A DNA stretch of 64,000 nt from Alphaproteobacteria bacterium (lineage in GTDB: Bacteria; Pseudomonadota; Alphaproteobacteria; UBA828). The first letter of the stretch is position 1, and every line of letters starts with the position of its first letter. The notes below the pieces were generated by a model. The model ran no database searches, had not been told where the DNA came from, and saw only the letters and a list, made by a program, of their open reading frames with translations. This document shows, piece by piece, positions 5,581 through 42,761 of the stretch. The translations under genes were made by a program, and so were the position numbers. The DNA is taken from the NCBI GenBank assembly GCA_965216915.1, contig CBDCGS010000011.1, positions 523,230-587,229 on the forward strand, read 5' to 3'.

Positions 5581-5581
5581 G

Positions 5582-5956
5582 TCAGGTCGGTCCTGCTCGC
5601 TGGCGTGCAGGCTTTTTTTTGAAGTTGATGCCCTCGTCGTTCAACAAACGCCAAAGCGAGCCATAGCTCGCCCGCACCCCGCGCTCCTGCAGTTCCGAGA
5701 CCAACGCACGCAGCGTGATGTCCGGTGAGGCGGCGAGCCGGTCCAGCAACCAGTCGCGCTCGCCAAGCAGCAAACGCGGCAGCCGGCTGCCCATCGGCTT
5801 CGCAGCAACGCTGCCCGTCGCTCGGTAGCGCTGCGACCACTTCACAACGCTCGAAACGCTCACACCAAAGTGAGACGCAACCTCCCGAACAGGCTGACCC
5901 GCCTCAACCCGAGCAACAACACGAGAACGAAGATCCTCCGAATAGGCTCGTGCCAT
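5582..5956 (-). CDS. IS630-family transposase, N-terminal HTH part (OrfA); terminates 9 codons after an A8 run
   Basis: Helix-turn-helix N-terminus typical of IS630 (SEDLRSRVV...[21 protein letters not shown]). Minus-strand A8 at 5613-5620. Confidence 0.8.
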
Positions 5957-6049: not shown

Positions 6050-8032
6050 CTAGCGCGGAATAATCCGCTCCGGCGGAAAATCCAGGATCACCGACGTTCC
6101 GACCCCAACCTCGCTTTCGATGTCGAGCACGCCGTCGTGGAGTTGCATCATCGACGCGGACAGCGGCAAACCAAGACCAGTGCCCTCATACTTGCGGCTG
6201 AGCGCGCTATCCACCTGGCCGAACGCCGAGAGCGCCTTCGGGATGTCTTTTCGATCGATGCCGATCCCGGTATCGGCGACGATAATCCTGTAGCCGGTTC
6301 TCTCATCGGCCTCGGCAGAAATCGTGACGGATCCGCCCGGCGGCGTGAATTTGACGCCGTTCGAAAGCAGGTTGAGAAGAATCTGCCGAATCTTCGTCTC
6401 GTCGCCACCGAGTCTGGGAAGCTGCTCATCGACATTGTTGATCATTTCGACTTCGGCGGCCTCTGCGCGCGGCTTGAGCAGGCGGATACAGGCCGTGGCC
6501 ACGATCCGGATATCGACTGGGCGATTTTCAAGATCGAGCGCGCCCGCTTCCGCTTTCGAATAATCGAGAATGTCATTGATGACGCCGAGCAGATGCGTGC
6601 CGCTCACATGGATGTCCCGGACATAGTCCGTGTACGCCTGGCTTCCGAGCGGACCGAATAGCTCGTTCTTGAGTATTTCGGAAAATCCGATGATCGCGTT
6701 GAGCGGAGTCCTAAGCTCGTGGCTCATGTTCGCGAGAAACTCGGTCTTGGCACGGCTCGCAAGCTCCGAGATCTCGTGCGCGCGCCGGGCTTCCTCCTCC
6801 GCAAGGCGCAACTCGGCTTCGCGGGATTTCATCTTGGTGATGTCGTGCCAGATTTCGATGACGCCGCCACTGCCCGACCGCTCGGTCGTGATTTGCACCC
6901 AACGATTGTCGGCGAGCTCGATTTCAACATCGTGACGCGCGCGCCTGTGATGCTCCACTTGCTTGTCGATAAACCCGCGCACGTCCTCCGGCGACCCGGC
7001 GAACAAGCCCGCGTCCCCCGCCGCTTCCATCAAGTCGCCAAAACGCGACCCAGACACAACCGACTTGGGATCCCGCGACAGGAAGCTCGCATAGGGGCTA
7101 TTGCAAAGCACCAACTTGTCGTCGCAATCGTAAAGCGCGAAGCCTTGGGGAATGATCTCGATGGCTTGCACCAGTCGTGCCTGCGCCTCAGAGAGGCGAG
7201 CCTCGGTCTCGGTGGCTTCGGTGACATCCGTCGCCGTGCCGCGATACCCTTGGAACGTGCCTGTTGCTTCGTCGAAGACCGGAACCCCGCTTAGCCTGAA
7301 CAGACGCACACCGCCGTCGGTGTCAACCAGGCGATAGAACACCTCGCGAAACGGCACGCGCGAGCCCGGGTACGGATGCTGCTTCCGGTTGGCTTCCGCA
7401 AAGCCCTCGAAATCACCGAATTCGAACAGGCATGTGCCAATCAGCAGGCGCGCCGGAAGGCCGACGATCTCCGTAAAACGCTCCGAGACGAACGTGAACT
7501 TGAAAGCCTGATCGACCTCCCACACCCAGTCGAAGGTCAAGCGTGCGATGTCGTCGAACCGGGCGCGGGCGAGCCTGAGCTCGTCGGATTTCCGGTCCGC
7601 AACGCCATGAAACAAACCGATGACCAGAGCCGGCCCGTCTTCGGACGCGGGTAACGGCCAGTAGTGGCCGATGATCATTTGGTGGTCCGCCCCATCGTCC
7701 CGCAACGCATGCTCGAACTCGCACGGCCTCCCGACCTTGAGCGCGTGGGTGATCGCAGCCTTCGGCGAAAGCGCGAGTTCGGGCGTGCTGTCAGAACGGG
7801 CCGGATCGTTGCGCTCAACCAGCGCGCGGTAGGCGGCGTTCGCGTGAACCAGAATCCCATCTTGGTCGGCGACGAAGGCGGCGGGCCCGTGTTCGAACGC
7901 GAAGGCGAACCAAGGCTCGTTCAGCGTTCCGCGGATTGTGTCTCGCCCACTTCGCGCGGAATCGAGCCGCGGGTGCGGAACAATCCGCGCGGTCTCCGTC
8001 TCGGCGGAGTGGGAAGACCCTGGCTTAGCCAT
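6050..8032 (-). CDS. Cytoplasmic PAS-domain sensor histidine kinase (multi-PAS, HisKA, HATPase_c)
   Basis: H-box HELRTPLNAIIGFSE; N/G boxes LLNLLSNGVKFT, DTGIGI, GTGLGL. Several PAS-like segments and no TM segment. The chosen start MAKPGSS at 8032 is 4 nt from the upstream stop; the longer track ORF (to 8605) is a Ser/Arg-rich frame artefact. Confidence 0.85.
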   Translation of the reverse strand: MAKPGSSHSAETETARIVPHPRLDSARSGRDTIRGTLNEPWFAFAFEHGPAAFVADQDGILVHANAAYRALVERNDPARSDSTPELALSPKAAITHALKVGRPCEFEHALRDDGADHQMIIGHYWPLPASEDGPALVIGLFHGVADRKSDELRLARARFDDIARLTFDWVWEVDQAFKFTFVSERFTEIVGLPARLLIGTCLFEFGDFEGFAEANRKQHPYPGSRVPFREVFYRLVDTDGGVRLFRLSGVPVFDEATGTFQGYRGTATDVTEATETEARLSEAQARLVQAIEIIPQGFALYDCDDKLVLCNSPYASFLSRDPKSVVSGSRFGDLMEAAGDAGLFAGSPEDVRGFIDKQVEHHRRARHDVEIELADNRWVQITTERSGSGGVIEIWHDITKMKSREAELRLAEEEARRAHEISELASRAKTEFLANMSHELRTPLNAIIGFSEILKNELFGPLGSQAYTDYVRDIHVSGTHLLGVINDILDYSKAEAGALDLENRPVDIRIVATACIRLLKPRAEAAEVEMINNVDEQLPRLGGDETKIRQILLNLLSNGVKFTPPGGSVTISAEADERTGYRIIVADTGIGIDRKDIPKALSAFGQVDSALSRKYEGTGLGLPLSASMMQLHDGVLDIESEVGVGTSVILDFPPERIIPR

Positions 8033-9197
8033 CGGCGCCGACCTGCTTGAGCGCGAAGAGATAATCAGAGCTCCGGCGCCAGCGTCGCAACACGCGATTG
8101 GCGTCGTGCTGGCGCGTCTTTCTATAGAGCTCGACCAATTCGCGATGCTGCGCGGCGCTCGGCTTCGCGCCGCCGTCACCTGCGCGCCGCGTAAGCTCGA
8201 AAATCGCCATGAACGTATCCGTGTCCAGGCCGATCGCACGGCAAAGCAGTGCCAAGGCTTCCCCGCCCGGCTCGAACAGAATGCGCCGGAGCAGCTTGGG
8301 GCGCAGACCGCTGAGCTTGCAGAGACCGGCCTCGAAGAGCGAAACCTCGCCCTGACGAAGCGCCTTGATGAGGAAGCTCGCATCGAGCTCGTCGAGCGCT
8401 GCGAGACGGTCGACGAGATCTTCCGGCTTGGTCGACGACGCGCCCTCGGAATCCTCGAGTTGGATCGCCGTCGCGGCTTCGATTGCATCGTCGAGCGATG
8501 ATGCGTCGATGTCGAAGTTGGCGGCGATGTGCTTTCTGAGAGCGGCGGAGACCCACCAGTACATCCGCTGCGCGAGATCTGTGGGCAAGTCTGGGCGCCG
8601 CACAAGCGGATTCTGGTAACTGTCCATTCGCTTGGATTCGCTCACCAGATATTCCATGACCTCGCGCGAGATGGCGGCACCATGGTTGTTGAGAAGGCTG
8701 GTGATCACATCTTCATCACCGGTCTCGACCAGCGCCTGCGACACTTCCTCGCTCACCGTGCTTCGCATCGACACGGCGAGCTGATGCTGCATGGTGCGAT
8801 GCTTGACGATTTCGATGAGATCGGCGTCCTGGAGAATCTGGTTTTGGATCAGGATCTGGTGGGCGACCTCGAATTCCTGATTGGCCAGCTCGACCACCAG
8901 CGCGTGCGGCGTGTCGGTCCGTGTGGCGAGCTGATCGGCCAGGCGCTTCCGTACCTCCATTTCGACGTCGTGGATGAGCTGACGCAAGATTTCGCCCATC
9001 AGGGCGCGTTCACGATCGCTCAGCATCTCGCCGTTTTTTAGGAACAAATCCTGAACGGCTTCGAACAAAGCACCGCGGCTATCCCGCGATCGATCGCGGG
9101 CGAGACGGAATAGCGTCTCCACGTCGAAATCCCCCGCGCGAAGGGCGTCGGCAACCAACGTCGGCATCGTCGCTTCTGATCTGCTCTCGATCGGCAT
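8025..9197 (-). CDS. Conserved hypothetical protein, resembles alphaproteobacterial DUF2336-type helical-repeat proteins; start uncertain (9197, 9167 or 9269)
   Basis: About 390-aa helical protein immediately upstream of the kinase. Family assignment is from memory only. Confidence 0.5.
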   Translation of the reverse strand: MPIESRSEATMPTLVADALRAGDFDVETLFRLARDRSRDSRGALFEAVQDLFLKNGEMLSDRERALMGEILRQLIHDVEMEVRKRLADQLATRTDTPHALVVELANQEFEVAHQILIQNQILQDADLIEIVKHRTMQHQLAVSMRSTVSEEVSQALVETGDEDVITSLLNNHGAAISREVMEYLVSESKRMDSYQNPLVRRPDLPTDLAQRMYWWVSAALRKHIAANFDIDASSLDDAIEAATAIQLEDSEGASSTKPEDLVDRLAALDELDASFLIKALRQGEVSLFEAGLCKLSGLRPKLLRRILFEPGGEALALLCRAIGLDTDTFMAIFELTRRAGDGGAKPSAAQHRELVELYRKTRQHDANRVLRRWRRSSDYLFALKQVGADG

Positions 9198-9420
9198 CGC
9201 CGCTTTCGCCTCGCGCAGAGGTAGTCCGTAGGCCGGAAGACACACCCGGCCCTTCTGCCGAATTACCACTCTGCGGGCTAAGATTTCGCTAACGCGGCGA
9301 TCGCCAGAGTCGCTGTAAACGCAAACGGAAACGAGCGTTCTGTGTCAACGGCGCCCCTGGTCAGGGAAACTCAGGACCGCGGATCCCCCGTCGGCGGCGG
9401 CAGGACCAAGCGTCGCGGGG

Positions 9421-10926
9421 TTACACGGCCTCCGACGTGAGCGTCACCGTATAGCCCCAGAGCCGCTCGACATGCTTGATGACGGCCTCGTTCGTCTCCT
9501 TCTCGAGCGGCACGCCGTCACGCTGTGTGTGGCGCAGCTTGAGGCTGCGATCGCCCTTCAAGTCGACATCGAGGACTTCGATGTTGGGCTCGGCGACGCT
9601 TAGATCGTGGGCGCGCGCAAGCGCGGCGCGCACCCGCCGATAGCCGACCTCATCGTGAATGTCCGAGACCGTGTAGTGGCTCTTCTTCTCCTCATCCCGC
9701 AGGACGAAGAGCTTGAGCGTGCGGATCACATGCGGGCTGAGATATTGCTGGATGAAGGATTCGTCGCGGTAGTTGGCCCAGGCGTCCTTGAGCGCTGCGC
9801 GCCAGTCGCCTGAGCCCGCGAGCTCGGGGAACCATTCCCGATCCTCCGCCGTGGGCACCTCGCACATGCGCTTAATGTCCGACATCATTGCGAAACCGAG
9901 TGCGTAGGGGTTGATGCCGCGATAGCGCCGATCGTCGAAATCGGCCTGGAACAGCACGTTCGAGTGACTGTGCAGGATCTCGAGCATCGCGCCCTCGGTG
10001 AGAAGGCCGCGATCGAACAGCTGGTTGGTGATGTAGTGATGCACGAAGGTCGCGCAGCCCTCGTTCATCACCTTGGTCTGTTTCTGCGGATAGAAATATT
10101 GTGCGATGTTGCGGACGATACGCAGCACCTCGCGCTCCCACGTCTTCAGGACGGGGCTGTTCTTTTCGACGAAGTAGAGAAGGTTCTCCTCGGGCAGCTT
10201 GAGCTTCGCGCGCTGGGTCTCCTCATCCGGCTCGGCGGGCTCCGGCGTGTCCTCATCGGCGCTCTTCGGCACGGTGCGCCAAAGGTCGTTGAACGTGCTC
10301 TCTTCGTTCTCACGTCGCAGACGCTCCCGCGCGTCGCGCTCGGATTGCGTCAGCTTGGGCGGTCGACGGTAGCGAAAGACGCCATGATCCATCACGGCGT
10401 GCGCGGCATCGAGGATCTCCTCGACCGCGCCGACCCCGTAACGCTCCTCGCAGCGGGCAATGTAGCTCTTCGCGAACTGGAGATACTCAAGAATGCCCTC
10501 GGCGTCGGTCCACTGGCGGAACAGCTCGTTGTTCTTGAAGAAGTGGTTGTGGCCGAACGCGGCGTGCGCCATCACCAAGGCCTGCAAGGCCATGGTGTTC
10601 TCTTCCATGTTGTAGCTGATGCAGGGGTTCGAATTGATGACGATCTCGTAGGCGAGCCCTGCGTAGCCTTTGCGATAGGCGCGCTCCTCGCGGGCGAAAC
10701 GCTTGCCGAATGACCAATGCTGGTACATCAGCGGCATACCGACGGAGGAGTAGGCATCCAGCATTTGCTCGGAGGAGATGATCTCGATCTGATTGGGATA
10801 GACGTCGAGTCCGAGATCCTCGAGCGCGACCTCCTCGATTGCGCGATAGGTGCGCTCGAGCGTGTCGAAATCCCACTCGGAGCCCTCGAAGAGCGGCGTG
10901 ACCTTTTTCTGCGCGACCGCGCTCAT
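9421..10926 (-). CDS. SpoVR-family protein (E. coli YcgB-like), third gene of the prkA operon
   Basis: Conserved SpoVR blocks (MPLMYQHWSFGK, YEIVINSNPCISYNMEENT, AHAAFGHNHFFKNN). The start ATG overlaps the upstream stop (ATGA). Confidence 0.9.
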   Translation of the reverse strand: MSAVAQKKVTPLFEGSEWDFDTLERTYRAIEEVALEDLGLDVYPNQIEIISSEQMLDAYSSVGMPLMYQHWSFGKRFAREERAYRKGYAGLAYEIVINSNPCISYNMEENTMALQALVMAHAAFGHNHFFKNNELFRQWTDAEGILEYLQFAKSYIARCEERYGVGAVEEILDAAHAVMDHGVFRYRRPPKLTQSERDARERLRRENEESTFNDLWRTVPKSADEDTPEPAEPDEETQRAKLKLPEENLLYFVEKNSPVLKTWEREVLRIVRNIAQYFYPQKQTKVMNEGCATFVHHYITNQLFDRGLLTEGAMLEILHSHSNVLFQADFDDRRYRGINPYALGFAMMSDIKRMCEVPTAEDREWFPELAGSGDWRAALKDAWANYRDESFIQQYLSPHVIRTLKLFVLRDEEKKSHYTVSDIHDEVGYRRVRAALARAHDLSVAEPNIEVLDVDLKGDRSLKLRHTQRDGVPLEKETNEAVIKHVERLWGYTVTLTSEAV

Positions 10927-12275
10927 CCAGTCGCTCCGGATGATTGGGCCGCGGCGACCGAGGGTTCGTTGCGCGCGGCGAAGAGCTGGCGAAACACCGG
11001 ATAAATGTCGGCCGGGCTCGCGATATGCTTCATCGCGAAATTGGGCCACGCCTCCTCGACGGGCTTGTAGGCTTGCCAGAGCACCGAGCCGCGCGGGCTC
11101 GACTTCAACTCATCGAGGCCGCGCTTGTCGATAATCTCGACATAGGCGTAGTACTGGCAAAGCGGCATCAGCTCCTCGGTGAGGATGCTCTGGCAGCGGC
11201 CGGCGTCGCCCGAATAGTCGTCACCGTCGGAAGCCTGGGCGCAATAGATGTTCCACTCCGAGGTGTTGTAGCGGTCGCGCACGATCTCCTGCATCTTGCG
11301 GAGTGCGGTGCTCACGACCGTGCCGCCGGTCTCGCGGGCGTAGAAGAACGTGTGCTCGTCGACCTCCTCGGCGTGATGCGTATGGCGGACGAAGACCACG
11401 TCGATCCGCTCGTAACGACGCTGCAGGAAAAGGTGGAGCAAGACGAAAAAGCGCTTCGCAAGATCCTTCTCGCGCTCGCCCATGGAGCCTGACACGTCCA
11501 TCAAGCAAAACATGACGGCGTTCGAGTTGGGCTCGGGGTGTGATTCGAACCGGTTGTAGCGAATGTCGACCGGATCGATGTAGGGCACCGTCCGGAGGCG
11601 GCGCGCCACGGTCTCGAGGAGCGCTTGCAGCGCCGCGAGCCTCTCCTCCTCTTCCGGGGTGCGCGGATCCTTCGCCTGCAGCGCCTCGATCTCGGCCCGC
11701 AGCAGGTCTTCCTCGTCCGTTTTCGGACGCCGGAGCGCGATGCGCCGGCCGAGCGCGTTGCGCATGGTACGGATCACGTTGAGGTTGGTCGGCGTGCCCG
11801 CCGTCGCAAAGCCGGCGCGGTGCGGCTTGTATTGCACCACCTCGCGCAGGCTGGTCTTCACGAGATCCGGCAGCTCCAAATCCTCGAAGAAAAGGTCGAG
11901 GAACTCCTCGCGCGAGAGCGTGAACTCGAACCCGTCCTCGCCGTCGCCCTGGTCGCTCGCCTCCTTGCCGCTTCCACCCCCGGCGCCGCCGCCGGCGGGT
12001 GGCTTCTTGATCTTGTCGCCGACCTGATACTCCTTGTTGCCGGGGAGAATCATGTCGCGCGTGCCGCCCGATTGGGCATGGCGCCACCGCGGCTCGCTGA
12101 TCCCCTTGGTCGGAATGCGAACCTGCTCGCCCGATCCCGCATCCGTGATGCTCTTCTCGGTGACGGACCGGTTGACCGCATCCTTCACAAGCGCCCGCGC
12201 GCGCCGGATGAAGCGTTGCCGGTTGCCGAGGCTCTTCTGCTTCGGGTTCCGGCGGCGGTCGATGAAAAAGGGCAT
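10923..12275 (-). CDS. YeaH/YhbH-family protein (DUF444; vWA-like)
   Basis: DUF444 signature regions (VMFCLMDVSGSM, gly-rich GGGAGGGSG). The ATG directly abuts the prkA stop (TAAATG). Confidence 0.9.
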   Translation of the reverse strand: MPFFIDRRRNPKQKSLGNRQRFIRRARALVKDAVNRSVTEKSITDAGSGEQVRIPTKGISEPRWRHAQSGGTRDMILPGNKEYQVGDKIKKPPAGGGAGGGSGKEASDQGDGEDGFEFTLSREEFLDLFFEDLELPDLVKTSLREVVQYKPHRAGFATAGTPTNLNVIRTMRNALGRRIALRRPKTDEEDLLRAEIEALQAKDPRTPEEEERLAALQALLETVARRLRTVPYIDPVDIRYNRFESHPEPNSNAVMFCLMDVSGSMGEREKDLAKRFFVLLHLFLQRRYERIDVVFVRHTHHAEEVDEHTFFYARETGGTVVSTALRKMQEIVRDRYNTSEWNIYCAQASDGDDYSGDAGRCQSILTEELMPLCQYYAYVEIIDKRGLDELKSSPRGSVLWQAYKPVEEAWPNFAMKHIASPADIYPVFRQLFAARNEPSVAAAQSSGATG

Positions 12276-14210
12276 TTAGCCGGCTTTCGAAACCCGCATG
12301 TACCACTCGACCAAGCGGCGAACCTGACGCTCGGTGTAGCCGCGATCGGTCATACGCTTGACGAAGTCGGCGTGCTTGCGGTCGGTCTCGCTGTCCTTCT
12401 TCGAGCCGAAGCTGATCACCGGCAACAGCTCCTCGACCTGGCTGAACATGCGCTTCTCGATGACGGTGCGCAGCTTCTCGTAGCTCGTCCAAGAAGGATT
12501 GGTGCCGTTGTTCTGGGCGCGCGCGCGCAGGCAGAACTTGACCACCTCGTTGCGGAAATCCTTCGGATTGGCAATGCCCGCGGGCTTCTCGATCTTTGAG
12601 AGCTCCGCATCGAGGACGGCGCGATCGAGCATCTGGCCGGTGTCGGGATCCTTGTAGTCCTGCTCCTCGATCCAAGCGTCCGCGTAGGCGATGTAGCGAT
12701 CGAACAGGTTCTGCCCATACTCGGTGTAGGACTCGAGGTAGGCCTTCTGGATCTCGTTGCCGATGAATTCCGCGTAGCGCGGCCCAAGCTCGGCCTTCAG
12801 GAACTCGAGATATTTGTTCTCGACATCCTCGGGAAATTGCTCGCGGCGCACGGCGCTCTCCAGCACGTACAAGAGGTGGACCGGATCGGCGGCCACCTCC
12901 TCGGTGTCGTGGTTGAAGGTCTCCGAGAGCACCTTGAACGCGAACCGAGTGGAAACGCCGGTCATGCCCTCGTCGACGCCCGCCGCGTCGCGATACTCCT
13001 GCATCGACTTGGCGTTGGGATCGCTGTCCTTGAGGTTCTCGCCGTCATAGATCCGCATTTTCGAGTGGAGCGACGAGTTCTCGTGCTCGTGCAGGCGGGT
13101 CAACACGGAGAAGCGGCTGAGAATGTTGAGGGTCTCGTCGGCGCAGGGCGCCTCCGCGAGCTCGCTGTCCTTGAGCAGCTTTTCGTAAATCCGCGTTTCC
13201 TCGGTGACGCGCAGGCAATAAGGCACCTTGACCACGCAGATCCGGTCGAGGAAGGCTTCGTTGTTCTTGTTGTTCTTGAACTGCTGCCACTCGGCCTCGT
13301 TGGAGTGCGCGAGCACGATGCCCTGGAAGGGGAGGCCACCGAAGGTCTCGGTGCCGACATAGTTGCCTTCCTGCGTCGCTGTGAGCAGCGGGTGCAGCAC
13401 CTTGATCGGCGCCTTGAACATCTCGACGAACTCGAGCAAGCCCTGGGTCGTGCGATTGAGGCCGCCGGAGAAGCTATAGGCGTCGGGATCGTCCTGGCTG
13501 AAGTGCTCGAGCTGGCGGATGTCGACCTTGCCGACGAGGGCAGAGACGTCTTGGTTGTTGTCATCGCCGGGTTCGGTTTTGGCGATGCCGATTTGGCGCA
13601 ACTTGGAGGGGTTCATTTTGACGACGGTGAAGCGGGACACATCGCCACCGAACTCGTCGAGGCGCTTGACCGCCCAAGGCGAGGCGCTGGCGCCGAGACG
13701 CCGCTTCGGAATGCCGTACTTCTCCTCCAGCACCGGCGCCATCTCCTCGCGATCGAAGAGACCGAGAGGTGATTCGAAAAGCGGGCTCGTTTGATCTCCG
13801 GCCTTCAGCACGTGGATCGGGTGCTTCTCCATCAGAAGCTTCAAACGCTCGGCGAGGCTCGACTTGCCGCCACCGACCGGGCCCAGCAGGTAGAGAATCT
13901 GCTTTCTTTCCTCAAGGCCCTGCGCGGCGTAGCGGAAAAAGCCGACGATGCGCTCGATGGTCTCTTCCATGCCGTGGAAGTCGCTGAACGCGGGATAGAC
14001 CTTGACGGTGCGGTTCAAAAAGATCCGGCCGAGGCGCGTGTCTTGGCTGGTATCGATGAGCTTCGGATCACCCACCGAGGCGACCATGCGCTCGGCCGCG
14101 CTCGCATACATCATCGGATCGTCGCGGCAACCGAGAAGGTAGTCTTGCAGGGTCATCTCCTCGGCTTCGTTCCGGGTGTAATACTCGGAAAAGAGATCGA
14201 TCACGTTCAT
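12276..14210 (-). CDS. prkA: PrkA-family serine protein kinase (E. coli YeaG-like), 644 aa
   Basis: Walker A LLGPVGGGKSSL and an extensive PrkA/YeaG-like sequence. The start was chosen at MNVIDLFSEYYTRNEAEEMT (ATG at 14208-14210). Confidence 0.9.
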   Translation of the reverse strand: MNVIDLFSEYYTRNEAEEMTLQDYLLGCRDDPMMYASAAERMVASVGDPKLIDTSQDTRLGRIFLNRTVKVYPAFSDFHGMEETIERIVGFFRYAAQGLEERKQILYLLGPVGGGKSSLAERLKLLMEKHPIHVLKAGDQTSPLFESPLGLFDREEMAPVLEEKYGIPKRRLGASASPWAVKRLDEFGGDVSRFTVVKMNPSKLRQIGIAKTEPGDDNNQDVSALVGKVDIRQLEHFSQDDPDAYSFSGGLNRTTQGLLEFVEMFKAPIKVLHPLLTATQEGNYVGTETFGGLPFQGIVLAHSNEAEWQQFKNNKNNEAFLDRICVVKVPYCLRVTEETRIYEKLLKDSELAEAPCADETLNILSRFSVLTRLHEHENSSLHSKMRIYDGENLKDSDPNAKSMQEYRDAAGVDEGMTGVSTRFAFKVLSETFNHDTEEVAADPVHLLYVLESAVRREQFPEDVENKYLEFLKAELGPRYAEFIGNEIQKAYLESYTEYGQNLFDRYIAYADAWIEEQDYKDPDTGQMLDRAVLDAELSKIEKPAGIANPKDFRNEVVKFCLRARAQNNGTNPSWTSYEKLRTVIEKRMFSQVEELLPVISFGSKKDSETDRKHADFVKRMTDRGYTERQVRRLVEWYMRVSKAG

Positions 14211-14312
14211 CGCTAGACCTGACCTTTCGGCGTATCGACGCCGCGGCTTGGAGCGACGCGGGGAGCGCCGCCATGTTTGGGCGGGGTGTGGACTGGTCTC
14301 CGGCAGCAACAC

Positions 14313-14744
14313 GCGCTTGCGTGTTCCCTCGAGCGGCCGGGCAGTCCCCGGTGATATGGCGCCGTCATCATGGGGTTCGTTGATTCCTCACGGCGTGCGT
14401 CGCCGCGTTCAAGAACCTGAAATGCGCACCATGTATTAGCGTCCGTTGCCTCTTAAATTAGGGTAAATATCGTTGAAAACAATAACAAATCATGAATTTC
14501 TTTCTGCAACGAAGAGTAAGTCGTTGTATTATTTCGTATATTGCGCTAGATTCCAGCAACGAGTCAGCACAATGCAACCATCGAACGAGTAGAAAAATCT
14601 CTATAATTATCAATAGATTATAAGGCGGCACGCACACAGCCGCCCCCAGCGAGCGACGCCTTAAATTTGCCGCATTTTTCTCATTATTCTCTTGGAAATA
14701 CTCGGCATGCCGCCTGGCGCCGAAATCCGGCGCGCGCGGGCGCG
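14313..14744. promoter_or_regulatory. AT-rich (low-GC) non-coding island between the hydantoinase operon 3' end and the prkA start; contains the prkA promoter and a long leader
   Basis: GC content drops abruptly (e.g. TTAAATTAGGGTAAATATCGTTGAAAACAATAACAAATCATGAATTTC) in an otherwise GC-rich region. No ORF with coding character is present. Confidence 0.4.
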
Positions 14745-17700
14745 TCAGCCGGCAGCCTCGCGCGAGCGCCCGTAGGCTTGGAGTCCCTCCGGCGTGACGA
14801 AGCCGTCCAGCAGATCCTCCCGGATGGCATCGTCATCGCGCTCTTTCGGGTCGCCCCAACCGCCACCGCCGGGCACCCGCACGAGGATCTGATCGCCGCG
14901 ATGAAGTGCGATGTTGACGAATTTCGTCGGGCTGACCGTGCCGAACACCTCCTTGAAGGTGCGGAAATCATCGTCGCCGACCCGCTTGACGAAGAACCCC
15001 GTGGGCGCGCCCGGCTGGCCACTCATGAGGCCGAAGGGCCCCTCGGTGATGCGATCCGTCAACGCGCTGACACTGACCTCGTCGGCAACCACCTCGAACT
15101 GCCGCCAGCAACCGAGGCCGCCGCGCCACTTGCCGGCGCCGCCCGAGTCCGGGCGGATCTCGTATTTGAGGACGCGTAAGGGGAAGCGGGTCTCGAACAC
15201 CTCGATCGGCGTCGCTCGGATCGTGCTCGCATGGGCGCAGCAAAGCGCGGTGTTGCCATCCTTGCCGAGCCGGCCACCCCAACCGCCACCCTCCAGCTGG
15301 TAGTGGGTCCAATAATCGCCCGTGTCCGGGTGAATACCGCCGAGCAGCAGGTTGCAGGCCGTGCCGCCCTCGGCAGCGCTCACCATCTCGGGGACGGCTT
15401 TCGCGAGCGCCTGCTGCACCGCGGCGATGATCCGCGGTTGCCCTTCGGTGTTGCCCGCGACGCTCGGCGCCGGAAACACCGGGTTCGCGACCGTTCCGGG
15501 CGGTGCGACGACGCGCAGCGGTTTAAAGCACCCGCTATTGAGCGGCACGTCGCGCGCGCAGAGCGTCTGCAGCACCGCGGTGCAGCCGGCGGCGGCCGTC
15601 GCGACATAGGTGACGTTGATTGGGCCGCGCGCCTGCTTGTCCGACTCCGAGAGGTCGACGACGATCTCCTCGTCCCGGATGTGCACGGTCGGGCGGAAAT
15701 AGTAGCGCTCGGCGGTGACCCCATCGTCCTCGAAATAATCCTCGGCCTTGTAGATGCCGTTCGGAAGCTTTCCGATCTCGCTCCGCATCCACTGCTCCGC
15801 ATGGTCGACCAGCGCGTCGCAAATTCGCTCGAAGGTCTCGATGCCCAAGCGCTCCACAAGGGCGCTGAGGCGCTGCTCGGCGGTGTTGAGCGAGCCGATC
15901 ATCGCGTGGAAGTCACCCCAGGTGGTGTTCGGCGTGCGGTGATTGGCGAGCGCGATGCGCCAGACATCCTTCACATATTCGCCGCGCGAGATCAGCTTCA
16001 CCGGCGGCAGCCGCAAGCCCTCTTGAAACACCTCCGTCGCCGTGCTCGCGAACGAGCCGACCGCCATGCCGCCGATCTCCGCGATATGCGCGATGTTCGC
16101 CGCATAGCCGACAAGCGTGTCGCCGACGAAAACCGGCTTCATCAGCAGATGCTCGGGCATGTGGCACTGACCGCGGTAGGGGTCGTTGTGAACGATCACA
16201 TCGCCCGGCTCGATCGGGTCGTCCATCTCCTTCACGCAAAGCGGCACGGTGTGGAGTCCGGCACAGATGATCGCGGGGTTCATCTCGGCCTGGCCGACCA
16301 TGCGCAGCTGCCGATCGAACAGGCAGCACGAGAAGTCGCGCGACTCGCTGAAGATGGGCGAATAGGCGGTGCGCACCATCGCGCTTTCCATCTCGTCGCA
16401 GATGTTGCCGAGCGCGTTGTTGACCACGGTCAGCGTCACCGGATCTTGCTCGGGCGCGAGCCGGCCGGTGCCGACGGCCGCGGCGGCCTGCGGGAGGCTC
16501 ACGATCAGGCTGCCGTCCGCCCCGATCTCGACCGTGCTCTGCGGCGGCACGAGCGTCGTGGAGTCCATCTCGTCGATGATCGCCGGCCCCGCGATCGTGG
16601 CGCCCGCCGCCAGCGCCGCACGGCGATAGACCGGCGTCTCGAGCGGCTCGGCGTCGTCGAAATAAACCGCGCGGTGCGCATGCGGCTCTCCCGAGCCCGT
16701 GGCCGGCGCGCGCAATCTCGCGTCGGTCTGCTCCTCGCCGCGCGCGATCACGCGCACCTCGGTCAGCTCCGCAACCTTGTCGCGGAGCGCGTAGCCATAG
16801 AGCTCCTCGTGCTGCCGGTGCAGGCCTTCGAGCGCGCGGGCGAACGCAGCCTCGTCGAGCGACAACGTGTCGAGCTGCACGAGCTCGCCGAAGTTCTGCC
16901 CCATGTAGCGCATGTTGAGGAAGCCGGTCACCGTCGCGTCACCCGCCAGACCGTCGCGCTTCAGCTCCGCGACCGCCTCGTGGGCCAGGGTCTCGAGCTG
17001 CCCATTCAAGGCGGCGAGATCGACCGTGTCCGAGCGATGGTTGACGGTGCGGGCCCGGTCAACCCGCAGGTCGGTGAGCAGCGTGCCGAGCGCCGAGCAG
17101 AGGCCGGGATGCGGCGGGACCACCACCTTCCGCATGTCGAGCGGCGCCGCGACGTCGACCGCATGCAGCGGTCCGGCGCCGCCGAAGGCGATCAGCGCAT
17201 AGTCGCGATGGTCGATCCCGCGCTCGACGGTCATGAGCCGGATGGCGTCGGCCATGTTCTCGGCCGCCGTTTCGAGGATCGCGCGCGCGGTTTCCACCGC
17301 CGTGAGGCCGAGCTCCTTGCCGAGCCCGCCCACGGCCTCGTGAGCGCGGGCCGCATCCAACCTCATCTCGCCGCCGAGAAAGTAGTCGGGATCGAGCCTG
17401 CCGAGCACCACGTTCGCGTCCGTCACCGTCGGCTCGGTGCCGCCGCGCCCGTAGCAGGCCGGACCCGGGTCGGCGCCCGCGCTGCGCGGGCCGACCCGCA
17501 GCAAGCCACCGACATCGACGTAAGCGATCGAGCCGCCGCCCGCGCCGATGGTCGTGTAGTCGATGAAGAGCGCGCTCACCGGCACACCCCATTCAACCTC
17601 ATATTCCGTCGTGGAGCCGAAAGCGCCGTCGGTGATGAGCCCGACGTCGCAGCTGGTGCCGCCCATGTCGAGCGTGACGCCATTGCCGTCCGCGTGATCC

Positions 17701-18530
17701 CGCGCGAAGCGCGCGCCGGCGATGACGCCGCCGGCGAGCCCCGACAGGAGCAGCTGCACCGGCACATCGCCGGCCGATTCGGCCTGAACATGGCCACCGT
17801 TCGATTTCATGAGCGAGAGCGGCGCGTCGATGCCCGCATCCCCCAGGTCGGCCGAGAGGCGGCCGACGAAGCGGTCGATGATCCGCTTGATGAACGCATC
17901 GGTAATCACCGTCGCGCTGCGCTGGTATTCGCGCCAAATCGGGCAGACGTGATGCGAGAGCGAGACCGGCAGATCCGGGAAGCGCCCGGAGAGATAGGCG
18001 CCGATCGCCTCCTCGTGACGCGGATCGACGTAGGAGAACAGAAGATTGACCGCCACCGCCCAATCGGTGTCGGGCGCGGCCTCGAGCCAGCCGGCGACCC
18101 AATCGCCCAGTCTCGCAAGCTCGGCGTCCGCGAGCGCGATCAGCACGTTGCCCTTGTGGTCGACGCGCTCGCGGATCCCGAACACGTGCCGGCGCAGCAC
18201 ACCGGCCGAGGGTTTCTCCCAGGCCGGGTTGTAGGCCTCCTTGCGCGCGATCAGGCCGATGATCGGAACGTCCTGAACGCCCTCGGTGCCGACATAGAGC
18301 ACCGTCGCGCCCTTCTTCTGCAATCGCGCGTTGGTCGCGATGGTGGTGCCGAGCACGATGCGCCCAATCTCGTCGGGCGCGAGATCGCTCTGCCGGAGCG
18401 CGGCGAGCGGCGCCTGCGCGGGCTCCTTCGGCGTGGAAGCGACCTTGACGGTGCGGATCTCTCCCGTCTGGTCGTCGAGCGCGACGAGATCGGTGAAGGT
18501 GCCGCCGGTGTCGATGCCGACCCTATACAT
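14745..18530 (-). CDS. Fused hydantoinase A (HyuA-like) + hydantoinase B (HyuB-like) / 5-oxoprolinase-like ATP-dependent amidohydrolase, 1261 aa
   Basis: The N-terminal half matches the Hydantoinase_A fold (MYRVGIDTGGTFTDLV). The C-terminal half is Hydantoinase_B-like. This single-polypeptide architecture is like eukaryotic 5-oxoprolinase. A strong RBS GGGAGGGG precedes the ATG. Confidence 0.85.
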   Translation of the reverse strand: MYRVGIDTGGTFTDLVALDDQTGEIRTVKVASTPKEPAQAPLAALRQSDLAPDEIGRIVLGTTIATNARLQKKGATVLYVGTEGVQDVPIIGLIARKEAYNPAWEKPSAGVLRRHVFGIRERVDHKGNVLIALADAELARLGDWVAGWLEAAPDTDWAVAVNLLFSYVDPRHEEAIGAYLSGRFPDLPVSLSHHVCPIWREYQRSATVITDAFIKRIIDRFVGRLSADLGDAGIDAPLSLMKSNGGHVQAESAGDVPVQLLLSGLAGGVIAGARFARDHADGNGVTLDMGGTSCDVGLITDGAFGSTTEYEVEWGVPVSALFIDYTTIGAGGGSIAYVDVGGLLRVGPRSAGADPGPACYGRGGTEPTVTDANVVLGRLDPDYFLGGEMRLDAARAHEAVGGLGKELGLTAVETARAILETAAENMADAIRLMTVERGIDHRDYALIAFGGAGPLHAVDVAAPLDMRKVVVPPHPGLCSALGTLLTDLRVDRARTVNHRSDTVDLAALNGQLETLAHEAVAELKRDGLAGDATVTGFLNMRYMGQNFGELVQLDTLSLDEAAFARALEGLHRQHEELYGYALRDKVAELTEVRVIARGEEQTDARLRAPATGSGEPHAHRAVYFDDAEPLETPVYRRAALAAGATIAGPAIIDEMDSTTLVPPQSTVEIGADGSLIVSLPQAAAAVGTGRLAPEQDPVTLTVVNNALGNICDEMESAMVRTAYSPIFSESRDFSCCLFDRQLRMVGQAEMNPAIICAGLHTVPLCVKEMDDPIEPGDVIVHNDPYRGQCHMPEHLLMKPVFVGDTLVGYAANIAHIAEIGGMAVGSFASTATEVFQEGLRLPPVKLISRGEYVKDVWRIALANHRTPNTTWGDFHAMIGSLNTAEQRLSALVERLGIETFERICDALVDHAEQWMRSEIGKLPNGIYKAEDYFEDDGVTAERYYFRPTVHIRDEEIVVDLSESDKQARGPINVTYVATAAAGCTAVLQTLCARDVPLNSGCFKPLRVVAPPGTVANPVFPAPSVAGNTEGQPRIIAAVQQALAKAVPEMVSAAEGGTACNLLLGGIHPDTGDYWTHYQLEGGGWGGRLGKDGNTALCCAHASTIRATPIEVFETRFPLRVLKYEIRPDSGGAGKWRGGLGCWRQFEVVADEVSVSALTDRITEGPFGLMSGQPGAPTGFFVKRVGDDDFRTFKEVFGTVSPTKFVNIALHRGDQILVRVPGGGGWGDPKERDDDAIREDLLDGFVTPEGLQAYGRSREAAG

Positions 18531-18732
18531 CGGCCCCTCCCTTCGCGCTTGCCTCGGCGACCTCAGCCATGAGACGGCGCTTCACCCCGGCGCAGCTCTC
18601 CTCGCAGAACTTTTCGCCGGGAAACTCGTCGTCCGCCCAGTAGGCGCGCGCCATCATGATGCCGCAGAACGAGCAGTTGAAAATACGCGTGTCGTACCAG
18701 GCCAGGTCGAACGGGACCCACTTGCCGCTCAT
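18523..18732 (-). CDS. Small Cys4 (zinc-ribbon-like) protein, 69 aa, translationally coupled to the fused hydantoinase
   Basis: Motif C-x2-C ... C-x3-C (FNCSFCG ... KFCEESC). RBS GGAGGAGG precedes the ATG. The 3' end overlaps the hydantoinase start by 8 nt. Confidence 0.55.
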   Translation of the reverse strand: MSGKWVPFDLAWYDTRIFNCSFCGIMMARAYWADDEFPGEKFCEESCAGVKRRLMAEVAEASAKGGADV

Positions 18733-18824
18733 GCCGCCCGCCTCCTCCCATCGGGTTTGTTGGCGAGGAGGTTTTCACGCGTCGCAGCGGGGGTCAACTG
18801 GGCCGCACGGCCTCGGCCCTGTGG

Positions 18825-19070
18825 CTACCCGCCGCCGATCCGCGGCAGGAAGCAGACCTCGCTGTCGGGCTTGACCGGCGAGAAGAGCGCGTCCTGGTGG
18901 ATCTCGCCGTCGATCGCGACGGCCATGCCGTCCTCCAGCCACGGCCCCATCGCCGGGAAGCGCGCCTGAAGCGCGCGGATGACATCGCGCACGTTCGTGG
19001 CCGTGACCTCCACCTCGGTCTCGCCGTCCGCGAAGGCGGCGAGACCGCCTGTGAGCAGCACCTTCACCAT
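18825..19070 (-). CDS. MoaD/ThiS-family ubiquitin-like sulfur-carrier protein, 81 aa, C-terminal Gly-Gly
   Basis: Beta-grasp pattern MVKVLL...V.....GGG. The end CFLPRIGGG parallels MoaD VAFFPPVTGG. RBS GGAGGAG upstream. Confidence 0.8.
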   Translation of the reverse strand: MVKVLLTGGLAAFADGETEVEVTATNVRDVIRALQARFPAMGPWLEDGMAVAIDGEIHQDALFSPVKPDSEVCFLPRIGGG

Positions 19071-19109
19071 CGCCCGCGGCTGCTCCTCCGCCGCGGTTGC
19101 GCGCGCGCC

Positions 19110-21407
19110 CTAGTCGTCCCCGCCGCCCTCATGATCGAGCGCCGCGAGGAGACGCGGCGGCGACATCGGCAGATCGCTCATGCGCACGCCGGTGGCGTCG
19201 GCAACGGCGTTGGCGACAGCCGCCATGGGCGGGATGATCGGCACCTCGCCGACGCCACGCACGCCGAACGGATGGGTCGGGTTCGGCACCTCGACGATGA
19301 CCGCGTCGATCATCGGCAGGTCGGATGCGACCGGCATGCGATAATCGAGGAAGCCCGGGTTCTCGAGGCGGCCCTCGTCGTCGTAGATGTACTCCTCGTT
19401 GAGCGCCCAGCCGATGCCTTGGGCGGCACCGCCCTGGATCTGGCCCTCGACGTAGCTCGGGTGGATCGCCTTGCCGGCATCCTGCACCGCGGCGTAGCGG
19501 AGCACGGTGACCCGGCCGGTCTCGCGATCGACCTCGACATCGCAAATGTGCGTGCCGAAGCCTGGGCCGGCGCCCTGCGCGTTGATCTGCGCATGACCCA
19601 TGATCGGGCCACCGGTCTTGCCGGCCTGAGCCGCGATCTCCGCGAGCGAAAGCGGCTCGAACTCGCCGGCGTTGCTGCCGGCGGGCTTCGCATGGCCATC
19701 CTCCCAGACGACGGCGTCCTCGGCGATGTCCCAGATCTTGGCGGCGCGGGCGCGCATTTGACTGACCACATCTTCCGCCGCCTGAACCACGGCCATGCCG
19801 GTGGCAAACGTCACGCGGCTGCCGCCCGTGAGGAAGGTGTAGCCGAGCGAGCTCGTGTCGGCGACGAGCGGGCGCACCCGCTCGAGGTCGATGCCCAGCA
19901 CCTCGGCCGCCATCATGGCGAGCGAGGCGCGCGAGCCGCCGATGTCGGGATTGCCCTCGATCACCGTCGCGGTGCCATCCTCGTTGATGTTGATGCTCGC
20001 GCAGGATTCGCCGCCGATGTTGAACCAAAAGCCCGAAGCGACGCCGCGCCCCTGGTTCTCGCCGAGCGGGACGCTGTATTGCGGGTGGTTTTGCGCGGCA
20101 TCGAGGGTCTCGATAAAGCCGATCGGCCCGAATTCGGGCCCATGCAGGGTGCGCGTGCCCTCCTTGGCCGCGTTCTTCCGGCGGAAGTCGAGCGGGTCGA
20201 TGTCGAGCTTGCGCGCGAGCTCGTCAAGCACGATCTCGACGCCGAATTCCGCGATCGGTGCGCCCGGCGCCCGATAGGCCGCCACCTTCGGCCGATTGAC
20301 CACCACGTCGTAGCCGACGACCTTGGCGTTGTCGATGTCGTAGGGCGCGAAGGCGCACATGCAGCCGGGCAGGATCGGCGAGCCAGCAAAGGCGCCGGCC
20401 TGATATTTGAGCTCCGCCTCGGCGGCCGTGATGCGGCCGTCCTTGGTGGCGCCGATCTTGATCCAGGTGGTGCCGCCCGAGGTCGGGCCGGAGGCGCGAA
20501 ACACCTCCTCGCGCGACATCACGATCTTCACCGGCCGGCCGGTCTTTTTGGCGAGCAGCACGGCGAGCGGCTCGATGTAGACGACCGTCTTGCCGCCGAA
20601 GCCGCCGCCGATCTCCGACGGCGTCACGCGGATCTCCGAAAGATCCATGGCCAGCAGATTGGCGATGTAGGAACGCACCGTGTACTGGCCTTGGGTCGTG
20701 CACCAGACCTGGCACTGGCCATCCTCGGAGACGCTCGCGACCGCGGCATGGGGCTCGATATAGCCCTGATGCACGGGCTTGGTGGAAAAGCGACGCTCGA
20801 CGATCACGTCAGCCTTCGCGAAGCCCGCTTCCACATCGCCCTTGTCGAGATCGACCCGCTTCGCGACGTTGGAGGGCTTGGTCGGCGCCGGCTCGACCCC
20901 CTGGGTGATCTGATCGTCGTGGAGCACGGGCGCGTCCGGTTCCATCGCCTTCTCGACGTCGATCACGTGAGGCAGCACCTCGTAGTCGACCTTGATGAGC
21001 TTGAGCGCCTCCTTGGCGATGGCCGGCGAGGTGGCGGCGACGGCGGCGAGCGCGTGGCCGTCATAGAGCACCTTGTCGCGCGCCATGACGTTGCAGGACA
21101 TGTCGCGGAAATTCACCAGCACCTCGCCCGCGGGCAGCCAATCGGCCGGCGGGAGCGGCGGCATGTCGTCACCGGTGATCACCGCCTTGACGCCCGGCAG
21201 GGCCCGCGCCGCCGACGTGTCGATCGACTTGATGCGCGCGTGGGCGTGAGGGCTCCGCAGCACCCGCCCGACGAGCATGCCGGGCAGTGAGAAATCGGCG
21301 CCGAATTTTGCGCGTCCGGTGACCTTGTCCACCCCGTCGGGCCGCACGGGCCGCTTGCCGACCCATTTGAGATCGCCGTTTTGCGCGTCTTTCAGTGCCG
21401 TTGCCAT
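19110..21407 (-). CDS. Molybdopterin-dependent oxidoreductase large (MoCo-binding) subunit, xanthine dehydrogenase / CoxL / aldehyde oxidase family
   Basis: About 765-aa protein with the typical N-terminal a/b-hammerhead and MoCo-binding regions. The ATG overlaps the small-subunit stop (TGATG). Confidence 0.9.
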
Positions 21408-21886
21408 CACGCATCTCCTCTCATGTCGGCCGCCGCGAGCATCACGGCCCGTATCACTTTGTCATACCCGGTGCAGCGGCAGAGATTGCCAGCCAGCCAG
21501 TAACGTGCCTCGGTTTCGGTCGGGTTGGGATGGCGCTCGAGCAGCGACTTCGCCGCGATCAAGAGGCCCGGCGTGCACACCCCGCATTGCAGCGCCGCTT
21601 CCTCGAGGAAGCGTTGCTGGAGGGGATGGAGCGTCTCGCCATCGGCCATCCCCTCGATGGTCTCGACCGAGCGGCCCCGGGCCTCGGCGCCAAGCACGAG
21701 GCAGGAGCACACCAGCCTGCCGTCGAGCAACACACTGCATGCGCCGCAATCGCCGGTGCTGCAGCCTTCCTTGCTGCCCGTCAACCCAAGCTCGTCGCGG
21801 AGCACGTCCAGCAACGTTTCCTCCGCCGTGCACAAAAACTCGACCGGCTCGCCGTTGACCGTCGTTTCGACGTGATATTTCGCCAT
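21407..21886 (-). CDS. (2Fe-2S)-binding small subunit of the molybdenum hydroxylase (CoxS-like)
   Basis: Two [2Fe-2S] motifs: C-x4-C-x2-C...C ([12 protein letters not shown]) and QCGVCTPG / CRCTGY. Confidence 0.9.
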
Positions 21887-22756
21887 CTAACCGTTCCTCG
21901 CACGCTCGAGGGCGATCCCGGCGGCGCGGCGTGCCAAGACGCCTGCCACCTTGACGCGGTATTCGACCGTGCCTCTCTTGTCATCGATCGGGTTGCACGC
22001 CGCGCTCGCCGCGGCCGCCAGCTTCTCGAGCGCCGGCGCGTCGACTGGCGTGCCGATCAGCGCGTCGGCGCCCTCCGTCACCAGGAGAGGACGCGGGGCG
22101 ACCGCGCCGAGACCGACGCGTGCCTCCGTGCAGACGCCATCGCCATCGAGCGTCAGGTTGACGCCCGCACCCACGACCGCGATATCCATCTCGGTCCGGG
22201 GAATAAAGCGCAGGTAAGCGTCGCCGCGTCCGGCCGCCTTGCCGGGAAGCGTGAACGACACCACGAACTCACCGCGCTGAAGCACGGTCTCACCCGGCGC
22301 GGTCACGAACTCCTCGACCGGAACCGTGCGCCGGCCGTCGGGGCCCGCAACGTTGCACACGGCGCCCGCAGCGATCAGGGCCGGCACCGTGTCGGCGGCC
22401 GGCGACGCGTTGCAAAGATTGCCGCCGAGCGATGCGCGCCCTTGGATCTGGGTCGAGCCGATCAGCTCGGTCGCCTCGACGACGCCGGGCCAGGCCGCCT
22501 TGAGCGCCTCGTGCTCGCCGATCTCGGCGCCCGTCGCCGCAGCCCCGATGTGAAACGAGCCATTTTCCTCCGTGATCGCGCGGACCTCGGGGATCTGCTT
22601 CACGTCGACGATCACCGCCGGTTCGATCATGTCGAGCCGGAGCTGGACCAGCAGATCCGTGCCGCCAGCCAGCACCTTTGCCCCGCCGTTCGCATCTGCG
22701 AGGCATCGCACCGCCTCGTCCACCGACGTCGGCGCTTCATACCGTTGTGTCACCAT
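21887..22756 (-). CDS. FAD-binding medium subunit of the molybdenum hydroxylase (CoxM-like, FAD_binding_5 + CO_deh_flav_C)
   Basis: Motif AGGTDL and the typical CoxM length (289 aa). Its stop abuts the small-subunit ATG. Confidence 0.9.
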
Positions 22757-39021: not shown

Positions 39022-39133
39022 CCACGCCAAGCCGCGCCGCACCGCTACGGCGCCAGCACCTCCTTTCGATCGCAAAGCAGCCGGCACACGGCCTGTTCGC
39101 CTGCCCATGTCACGGTGCTATGGTGCCGTCGCC

Positions 39134-40225: not shown

Positions 40226-40327
40226 GATTAATAAGGGGAGCGCGGCTTGTCCGCGGACATGAGCGGCCGGCCCAGATCGGACAGATAAGAGCCGCTTTCG
40301 AGACCAACCAAGAATGGGAGTGACAGA

Positions 40328-41761: not shown

Positions 41762-41772
41762 CGTTTGACCTT

Positions 41773-42760: not shown

Positions 42761-42761
42761 C

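Follow-up and report, generated by a model that had tools for sequence, protein, structure and literature searches.

In molybdenum (Mo) hydroxylases of the xanthine dehydrogenase (XDH)/carbon monoxide dehydrogenase (CODH) family, the substrate is hydroxylated with a water oxygen, and the electrons pass via two [2Fe-2S] clusters to flavin adenine dinucleotide (FAD). To our knowledge, the described operons for 4-hydroxybenzoyl-CoA reductase, CO dehydrogenase, 6-hydroxypseudooxynicotine dehydrogenase and quinoline 2-oxidoreductase, all three-subunit XDH-family enzymes, do not include a MoaD-like fourth gene, and we found no description of a MoaD-like gene in XDH-family operons in the literature. 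MoaD paralogs strictly linked to aldehyde ferredoxin oxidoreductase (AOR) genes have been reported (Iyer, Burroughs and Aravind 2006, PMC1779556), and these provide a precedent for a MoaD paralog tied to a pterin enzyme. As for enzymes that hydrolyse cyclic amides at the expense of ATP, three ATP motifs, termed P1, P2 and adenosine (DxGGTxTD, DxGGT and GxxPGP), have been defined for caprolactamase (PMC8453981). In the same superfamily, the small gamma subunits of acetone carboxylase (AcxC) and acetophenone carboxylase (Apc-gamma) have four conserved cysteines in a zinc-finger motif that lies far from the active site and is presumed to be structural; according to the authors of the acetophenone carboxylase structure, the hydantoinases (Hyd branch) have two subunits and no gamma orthologs (PMC5214803). 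We found no description of a zinc-finger partner of hydantoinases in the literature. Here we describe six genes on the minus strand of a 64,000-nucleotide (nt) stretch of alphaproteobacterial DNA (hereafter the window; GenBank assembly GCA_965216915.1, contig CBDCGS010000011.1) that encode a three-subunit Mo hydroxylase, a MoaD-like protein, a mini-protein with four cysteines (Cys4) and a fused hydantoinase A/B (HyuAB).

An earlier note on this DNA had taken the six genes for a single operon specifying a route in which hydroxylation is followed by ring opening. Its account of six minus-strand genes, with their coordinates, identities and domains, was borne out by the open reading frames (ORFs) and, for five of the products, by Pfam domains scoring far above the cut-offs; the Cys4 protein is the exception. 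The single operon was not. Instead, the six genes make up two independently conserved modules, A and B, that are neighbours in this lineage alone, a reading to which we assign a probability of roughly three in four. The features of the locus are as follows (lengths in amino acids, aa).

21887-22756, minus strand: FAD-binding (medium) subunit of an XDH/CODH-family Mo hydroxylase, module A gene 1 (289 aa; Pfam)
21407-21886, minus strand: small subunit with two [2Fe-2S] domains (FeS subunit), module A gene 2 (159 aa; Pfam)
19110-21407 (ATG start; GTG at 21410), minus strand: molybdopterin-binding large subunit (Mo subunit), module A gene 3 (765/766 aa)
18825-19070, minus strand: ThiS/MoaD-family β-grasp protein, module A gene 4 (81 aa; C-terminus PRIGGG)
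18733-18824, minus strand: 92-nt spacer forming the boundary of modules A and B (nucleotide similarity, folding)
18523-18732, minus strand: Cys4 mini-protein, module B gene 1 (69 aa; predicted zinc finger)
14745-18530, minus strand: fused hydantoinase A/B (HyuAB), module B gene 2 (1261 aa; ATP-dependent cyclic-amide hydrolase family)

Relatives of module B were collected by a fused-hydantoinase scan of one genome per species (GTDB). The 39 resulting loci (69-89 % identity) are from metagenome-assembled genomes, all alphaproteobacterial (or so labelled) and several from sponges, and were searched with the six window proteins by tblastn. For module A, a metagenome scan by the Mo subunit returned at least 600 matching stretches, and 80 loci were kept (67-78 % identity); together with five further loci they form a set of 85, 80 of which extend at least 350 nt downstream. 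Each module turned out to be conserved as a unit. The Cys4 gene lies directly upstream of HyuAB in all 34 genome loci with upstream DNA, and in 71 of the 80 loci with sufficient downstream sequence a MoaD-like homolog is found 8-259 nt 3' of the Mo gene. Both small genes are under purifying selection. The modules themselves do not travel together: a FAD, FeS, Mo or MoaD-like gene is present within 10 kb in 0/39 hydantoinase loci, and a Cys4 gene or a close fused hydantoinase in 0/85 module A loci, where one locus alone has a hydantoinase-like match, to a paralog with 41 % identity at a distance of 6.8 kb. Thus, modules A and B occur together in none of the 124 related loci (39 + 85). Since each is conserved as a unit and the two are never co-localised elsewhere, their adjacency here is specific to this lineage. 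Homologs never co-localised in other genomes were the very outcome that the earlier note had set in advance as speaking against a joint operon, and this is what the neighbourhood check found.

The same boundary is visible at the nucleotide level. Between the window and the hydantoinase relatives, DNA similarity begins ~13-70 nt 5' of the Cys4 ATG, with an edge near 18745 (18804 in one locus), and stops at the HyuAB stop codon; these relatives lack the 92-nt spacer of the window. Upstream of Cys4, members of the 88-89 % clade have a GFO/IDH/MocA-type oxidoreductase gene on the same strand rather than a Mo enzyme, and the window contains no homolog of that oxidoreductase. For each module separately, the neighbourhoods are variable. 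This outcome serves chiefly as a correction, a new heterocycle pathway having been suggested from genes closely spaced on one strand of one genome. As the two halves have separate histories, the pathway inference from this locus should not be propagated.

Inside each half, the tight coupling that had been noted is real and can be read from the junctions. The FeS subunit starts directly at the stop codon of the FAD gene (TAGATG), and the FeS/Mo junction is GTGATG, which gives an overlap of 1 nt with the ATG start of the Mo gene and of 4 nt with the GTG start; a public, 100 %-identical protein of 765 aa (P0009) uses the ATG. The gap between the Mo gene and the MoaD-like gene is 39 nt, and the Cys4 and HyuAB genes overlap by 8 nt. 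What did not survive is the extension of this coupling to all six genes, across the 92 nt that separate the MoaD-like gene from Cys4. No terminator-like or sigma-70-like site was predicted in this spacer (18733-18824), and a search between and upstream of the modules for a molybdenum cofactor (Moco) or other riboswitch, a terminator or a promoter gave nothing above threshold. Likewise, no Rfam family reached its gathering threshold in the spacer region; the one overlapping match below threshold, to BTH_s19 on the plus strand at 18878-18998 (17.9 bits against a gathering threshold of 153, E 0.45) was taken as chance. The spacer folds as two hairpins and more stably than shuffled controls (z = -2.0). 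The first follows directly after the MoaD-like stop codon and has no U-tract, and in the second CCUCCUC pairs with the Cys4 Shine-Dalgarno sequence GGGAGGAGG.

Module A contains the complete domain set of a three-subunit XDH/CODH-family enzyme, all of it far above Pfam cut-offs. The FAD subunit matches FAD_binding_5 (156 bits) and CO_deh_flav_C (86 bits), its best NCBIfam model being XdhB (194 bits against a cut-off of 310); the FeS subunit matches Fer2_2 (99 bits) and Fer2 (32 bits); and the Mo subunit matches Ald_Xan_dh_C, MoCoBD_1 and MoCoBD_2. Across the module A loci the Mo gene is mostly found behind those for the FAD and FeS subunits, with 57-76 % identity for the FAD gene in most related loci and 70-80 % for the FeS subunit. 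The Mo subunit has thousands of relatives. Its closest solved structure is the alpha subunit of 4-hydroxybenzoyl-CoA reductase (1rm6, 356 bits), followed by CO dehydrogenase, 6-hydroxypseudooxynicotine dehydrogenase and quinoline oxidoreductase. With 4-hydroxybenzoyl-CoA reductase, CO dehydrogenase, 6-hydroxypseudooxynicotine dehydrogenase and quinoline 2-oxidoreductase, module A shares the subunit set, the domain architecture and the GVGE motif, and its gene order (FAD, FeS, Mo) agrees with that of coxMSL.

Assignment to a particular enzyme was attempted with curated models. None of the NCBIfam equivalogs for XdhABC, 4-hydroxybenzoyl-CoA reductase, CO dehydrogenase, glyceraldehyde dehydrogenase, MoaD, caprolactamase or acetophenone carboxylase reached its threshold on the proteins of the locus, which therefore belong to known superfamilies and to no named enzyme. 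On this count the earlier note is supported: none of the proteins falls to a curated equivalog model. The 4-hydroxybenzoyl-CoA reductase models scored 498 bits against 995 (alpha), 141 against 405 (beta) and 164 against 258 (gamma), the 289-aa FAD subunit matching the beta model only in part, in two pieces that begin at profile position 153. We also rejected aerobic CO dehydrogenase (CoxL form I): the loop AYRCSF(R) reads AAYRAPG, with Ala in place of the Cu-binding Cys, and CO_dehy_Mo_lg scored 319 bits against a cut-off of 991. In the same alignment, GVRGVGEVP of the Mo subunit aligns with GAKGVGESP of CO dehydrogenase (1n5w/1zxi). The catalytic glutamate of the CODH GVGE motif, near the C-terminus of the Mo subunit, is Glu763. 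From these motifs, the module A enzyme looks like a competent hydroxylase, since GVGE is conserved, and does not look like a CO dehydrogenase, since the loop is AYRAPG. N-heterocycles, aromatic compounds and aldehydes are candidate substrates for the three-subunit hydroxylase.

The neighbours of module A are heterogeneous and, by sequence reading, resemble an enolase-superfamily protein, RidA, SDR, OYE and GMC proteins. Some loci carry two to three tandem Mo paralogs together with one FAD/FeS pair and one MoaD-like gene (L044 at 8662-17217, L052, L064, L071, L075, L101 and L107-L110); L044 is arranged as FAD, FeS, Mo, MoaD-like, Mo, Mo and L064 as FAD, FeS, Mo, Mo, MoaD-like. Among the Pfam-scanned ORFs of the window, which cover most of the 64 kb, there are no XdhC/CoxF/CoxD, MoaE or MoeB domains, in agreement with what had been noted from the sequence, and annotated module A relatives likewise have no XdhC/CoxF-type, MoaE or MoeB genes.

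Directly after the Mo gene, most module A operons have the MoaD-like gene. The 81-aa protein matches Pfam ThiS (33.2 bits against a cut-off of 22.5). In 67 of the 71 homologs the C-terminal Gly-Gly is followed by the stop codon, and A-I-D-G-E-I-x-Q-D and S-E-V-x-x-x-P-x-I-G-G-G are strongly conserved motifs. In the other four (L050, L055, L085 and L123), Gly-Gly is followed by 2-12 extra residues; these extensions resemble ubiquitin-like precursors that need C-terminal processing, and could alternatively reflect sequencing errors. A profile of 17 family members matched, among solved structures and always weakly, the sulfur carriers 4n6e_B and CysO (3dwg_C) before MoaD. The most economical reading of the MoaD-like protein would be that of a dedicated sulfur carrier for the hydroxylase cofactor. 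Such a carrier would act via a C-terminal thiocarboxylate and would serve either pterin dithiolene synthesis or the Mo=S ligand, functionally replacing the XdhC-type maturation genes that module A operons lack. That it is a thiocarboxylate donor that installs or repairs Mo=S or the dithiolene, by a sulfuration route distinct from the XdhC/PaoD/CoxF chaperones, is a speculative proposal that we hold with low confidence; if true, it would represent a different kind of Mo-enzyme maturation. The AOR-linked paralogs and the CysO, QbsE and PdtH carriers are likewise Gly-Gly ThiS/MoaD proteins tied to one enzyme or sulfur-transfer pathway. In contrast to the AOR-linked paralogs, the partner here is an XDH-family Mo hydroxylase rather than a tungsten AOR, and, unlike both these paralogs and the carriers, the MoaD-like gene does not have MoeB, JAMM, MoaE or rhodanese genes beside it in the annotated loci.

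It is also conceivable, although unlikely, that the 81-aa protein is nothing other than the general MoaD of the cell (molybdopterin synthase small subunit), placed beside a Mo enzyme and having no function particular to it. It belongs to the ThiS/MoaD fold family and ends in Gly-Gly, 16 of the 17 family members give weak matches to the moaD model, and in relative L044 MoaA, FdhD and a MobA/MocA-like gene lie a few kb upstream. However, the moaD equivalog (TIGR01682) gives 18.5 bits where its cut-off is 66, no MoaE is adjacent in any inspected locus, and the best solved profile matches are carriers of the CysO type. Moreover, the position after the Mo subunit is kept in very different environments, which would be unexpected for a housekeeping gene. 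We therefore retain the dedicated carrier as our reading of this gene. It would make the Gly-Gly β-grasp protein, found in place of a maturation chaperone in an uncharacterised Mo-hydroxylase clade that marine and soil metagenomes very commonly contain, a tangible starting point for finding out how the enzymes of this clade acquire cofactor sulfur.

In module B, HyuAB consists of a hydantoinase A half (residues ~1-680) and a hydantoinase B half (~696-1250), with the Pfam domains Hydant_A_N, Hydantoinase_A, Hydant_A_C and Hydantoinase_B. All three ATP motifs are present: DTGGTFTD (residue 7), DMGGT (288) and GADPGP (352). By both domains and motifs, HyuAB has what defines the ATP-dependent hydantoinase/oxoprolinase/lactamase (Hyd) branch. 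The closest solved structure is a fused 1288-aa 'N-methylhydantoinase' (7hk5/9h03; 692 bits, E 9e-207), which aligns at full length (1-1250 with 1-1251); weaker alignments were obtained with caprolactamase, acetophenone carboxylase and acetone carboxylase subunits. The two fused enzymes have in common the A-B order, the single polypeptide and the ATP motifs. The similarity is moderate and the proteins are not orthologous, and the kin of the window protein always come with a Cys4 gene. In the PDB entries (7hk5-7hka, 9h03), the 1288-aa chain is the one that was matched here. No curated model exists for N-methylhydantoinase activity, for which the 692-bit match is what we have; a Creatininase-family gene lies near module B in one relative (L001 and L005, same contig), and the window has none. 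Caprolactamase CapAB was rejected as an identity (CapA 446 and CapB 282 bits against NCBIfam cut-offs of 1000). CapAB, the bacterial OplAB lactamases and eukaryotic 5-oxoprolinase belong to the same family and share the ATP motifs and, presumably, a mechanism of carbonyl activation followed by hydrolysis; eukaryotic 5-oxoprolinase is an A-B fusion like HyuAB, while CapAB is a two-gene system that lacks a small subunit. In HyuAB, phosphorylation of the carbonyl of a cyclic amide would fall to the A half, and the B half would hydrolyse the activated ring. GFO/IDH/MocA and MR_MLE genes recur in the vicinity of Cys4/HyuAB in several clades and do not add up to a coherent pathway.

The window also encodes a second, unfused hydantoinase at 46618-50519 on the plus strand (A 718 aa, B 582 aa, 4-nt overlap). 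With identities of 37 % and 27 % to the fused enzyme, the pair is a distant paralog. No Cys4 gene accompanies it, and it is preceded by an ABC transporter operon (39107-44739), a 104-aa membrane ORF and a SnoaL-like gene.

The Cys4 protein belongs to no Pfam or NCBIfam family. Its cysteines follow the pattern C20-x2-C23-x19-C43-x3-C47 and are succeeded by VKRR and a C-terminal helix; structure prediction confidently gave a small zinc-finger-like fold followed by a helix. Because the four cysteines and 15 other positions are invariant in 13 sequences (relatives with 48-93 % identity), and the ratio of nonsynonymous to synonymous substitution rates (dN/dS) is 0.06-0.4 against ten relatives, the ORF is a real gene under purifying selection. 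Its family is a small one: it comprises 84 clusters at 90 % identity, all unnamed, and only 46 representatives were found at E <=1e-3 among 1.84 billion proteins. All of the 88-89 % clade keeps the 8-nt overlap with HyuAB, and for most of the ~70 % clade the two genes are 9-12 nt apart. The association also extends further: in L136 Cys4 overlaps by 4 nt the start of a HyuA that is 47 % identical to that of the window, and in L134 a distant Cys4 is clustered with a fused hydantoinase. A Cys4 homolog (50 % identity) without a downstream HyuAB is present in L131 (5029-5241) and L132 (7001-7213), between MR_MLE and Peptidase_S58; in L132 the opposite strand carries a separate Hydantoinase_B gene, 3.4 kb upstream. 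In L135 (319-1134), a 271-aa protein (P0234) joins a segment resembling the hydantoinase B C-terminus (GGGGYGEP) to a Cys4 domain; its contig is 1.8 kb long, with unrelated genes on both sides of it, and either a true fusion or a chimera of assembly or gene calling could account for it.

As for function, we propose by analogy that Cys4 may provide the fused hydantoinase clade with a small zinc subunit, non-homologous to the gamma subunits, or with an assembly factor: translationally coupled to HyuAB, it would bind one Zn and serve as a small structural or assembly subunit. The functional analogy is with AcxC and Apc-gamma, which are likewise small four-Cys extra subunits in the same superfamily. 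The cysteine spacing differs (C-x2-C-x49-C-x2-C in Apc-gamma against C-x2-C-x19-C-x3-C in Cys4), as does the size (15-19 kDa for gamma subunits against 7.5 kDa). The Cys4 spacing resembles that of TRASH, a type of zinc finger whose spacing is reportedly C-x2-C-x19-22-C-x3-C. If the proposal is true, the hydrolase branch of the hydantoinase/carboxylase superfamily would gain in Cys4 its first described small zinc subunit. In any case, these fused N-methylhydantoinase-like enzymes have a constant, unannotated partner of 55-80 aa, whereas current descriptions have the alpha and beta parts alone. Expression of fused hydantoinases, whether as lactamase biocatalysts or as diagnostic N-methylhydantoinases, may need the small gene to be co-expressed.

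A regulatory role, either as an upstream ORF or as a metal- or DNA-binding regulator that overlaps the hydantoinase start and is no subunit, is quite improbable. Such a role would fit a very small gene directly 5' of the enzyme gene and overlapping its start, the hairpin able to mask the Cys4 ribosome-binding site, and the VKRR, C-terminal helix and weak resemblance to nucleic-acid-binding zinc fingers (eL24, MYM). However, the conservation extends beyond the reading frame to the amino-acid sequence itself, as seen in the 19 invariant positions and the dN/dS of 0.06-0.4, and the homolog in L131/L132 shows that Cys4 can exist independently of translational coupling. Also against a regulatory role is the pairing of Cys4 with hydantoinase, which is kept down to 47 % hydantoinase identity. 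A small subunit or assembly factor thus remains our proposal for Cys4.

Several points weigh against the reading of the locus as two independent modules, each with its own dedicated small protein. Metagenome-assembled genomes supply nearly all of the related loci, and the window's own species is not among their sources. A and B may be co-transcribed in this genome, with both on the same strand, a 92-nt gap and no terminator-like site. A hydroxylase followed by an ATP-dependent lactamase is a biochemically sensible order. As for the small proteins, neither the window nor the annotated relatives showed a MoaE gene or a partner E1 (MoeB/ThiF) close to the MoaD-like gene, so the sulfur-carrier role is one that we purely infer. 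Cys4, considered as an acetone/acetophenone carboxylase gamma subunit, was rejected for want of any sequence or fold similarity (Acetone_carb_G; 5l9w, 5svb), and we infer its physical association with HyuAB from gene coupling alone.

In one distant relative, L129/L130 (~7000-14195), Cys4-HyuAB is followed by VapB/VapC, an AA_synth gene on the opposite strand and a different XDH-family Mo subunit of 795 aa (38 % identity over the first 161 residues). Since XDH-family paralogs are so common, this proximity is probably due to chance. In anaerobic indoleacetate degradation, a pathway with a hydantoinase-type lactamase, an earlier oxidation step has reportedly been proposed to need a Mo enzyme. That all six genes form one operon, in which the Mo hydroxylase makes a lactam beside the ring nitrogen and HyuAB opens the ring, is nevertheless very unlikely: the shared strand, the short gaps, the lack of a predicted terminator or promoter between the halves, the chemical precedent of the 2-oxoindoleacetyl-CoA gamma-lactamases (PMC5214803) and the different XDH-family Mo gene 2.5 kb downstream of Cys4-HyuAB in the distant relative L129/L130 speak for it, but the modules are co-localised in 0/124 related loci and have their own variable neighbourhoods, DNA similarity to relatives ends at the module boundary, and the L129 Mo subunit is only 38 % identical to that of the window and is parted from HyuAB by the VapBC pair and the opposite-strand gene. 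What remains are two enzyme systems of known kinds that stand side by side in this lineage alone, each with an under-described small accessory protein.

The flanks of the locus had been interpreted as part of a nitrogen-salvage island. Downstream of HyuAB lies a complete stress operon (9421-14312, minus strand) of PrkA (678 aa), DUF444/YeaH (450 aa) and SpoVR (542 aa). On the other side, 5' of the FAD gene, are a divergent D-Tyr-tRNA deacylase gene (dtd), an amidase, a response regulator with a hybrid kinase, and a second amidase, beyond which follow a PUA-domain methyltransferase and a gamma-glutamyltranspeptidase (GGT). Apart from PrkA in L073, which is arranged differently, neither set of related loci shows synteny with these flanks (dtd, amidase, PrkA). 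As the flanks are conserved with neither module, the nitrogen-salvage reading finds no comparative support; moreover, the immediate downstream neighbour is the stress operon, and the amidases and GGT are parted from the cluster by dtd, the two-component system and the methyltransferase.

Two further features of the window lie beyond the PrkA operon. An IS630-type transposase at 5014-5956 on the minus strand, ~9 kb from the cluster, is split into a helix-turn-helix ORF (5582-5956) and a DDE_3 ORF (5014-5580), which is either a programmed frameshift or a disrupted copy. Finally, two convergent ORFs, at 187-1089 (plus strand) and 1031-1810 (minus strand), overlap at their 3' ends, and both match the class-I glutamine amidotransferase domain.

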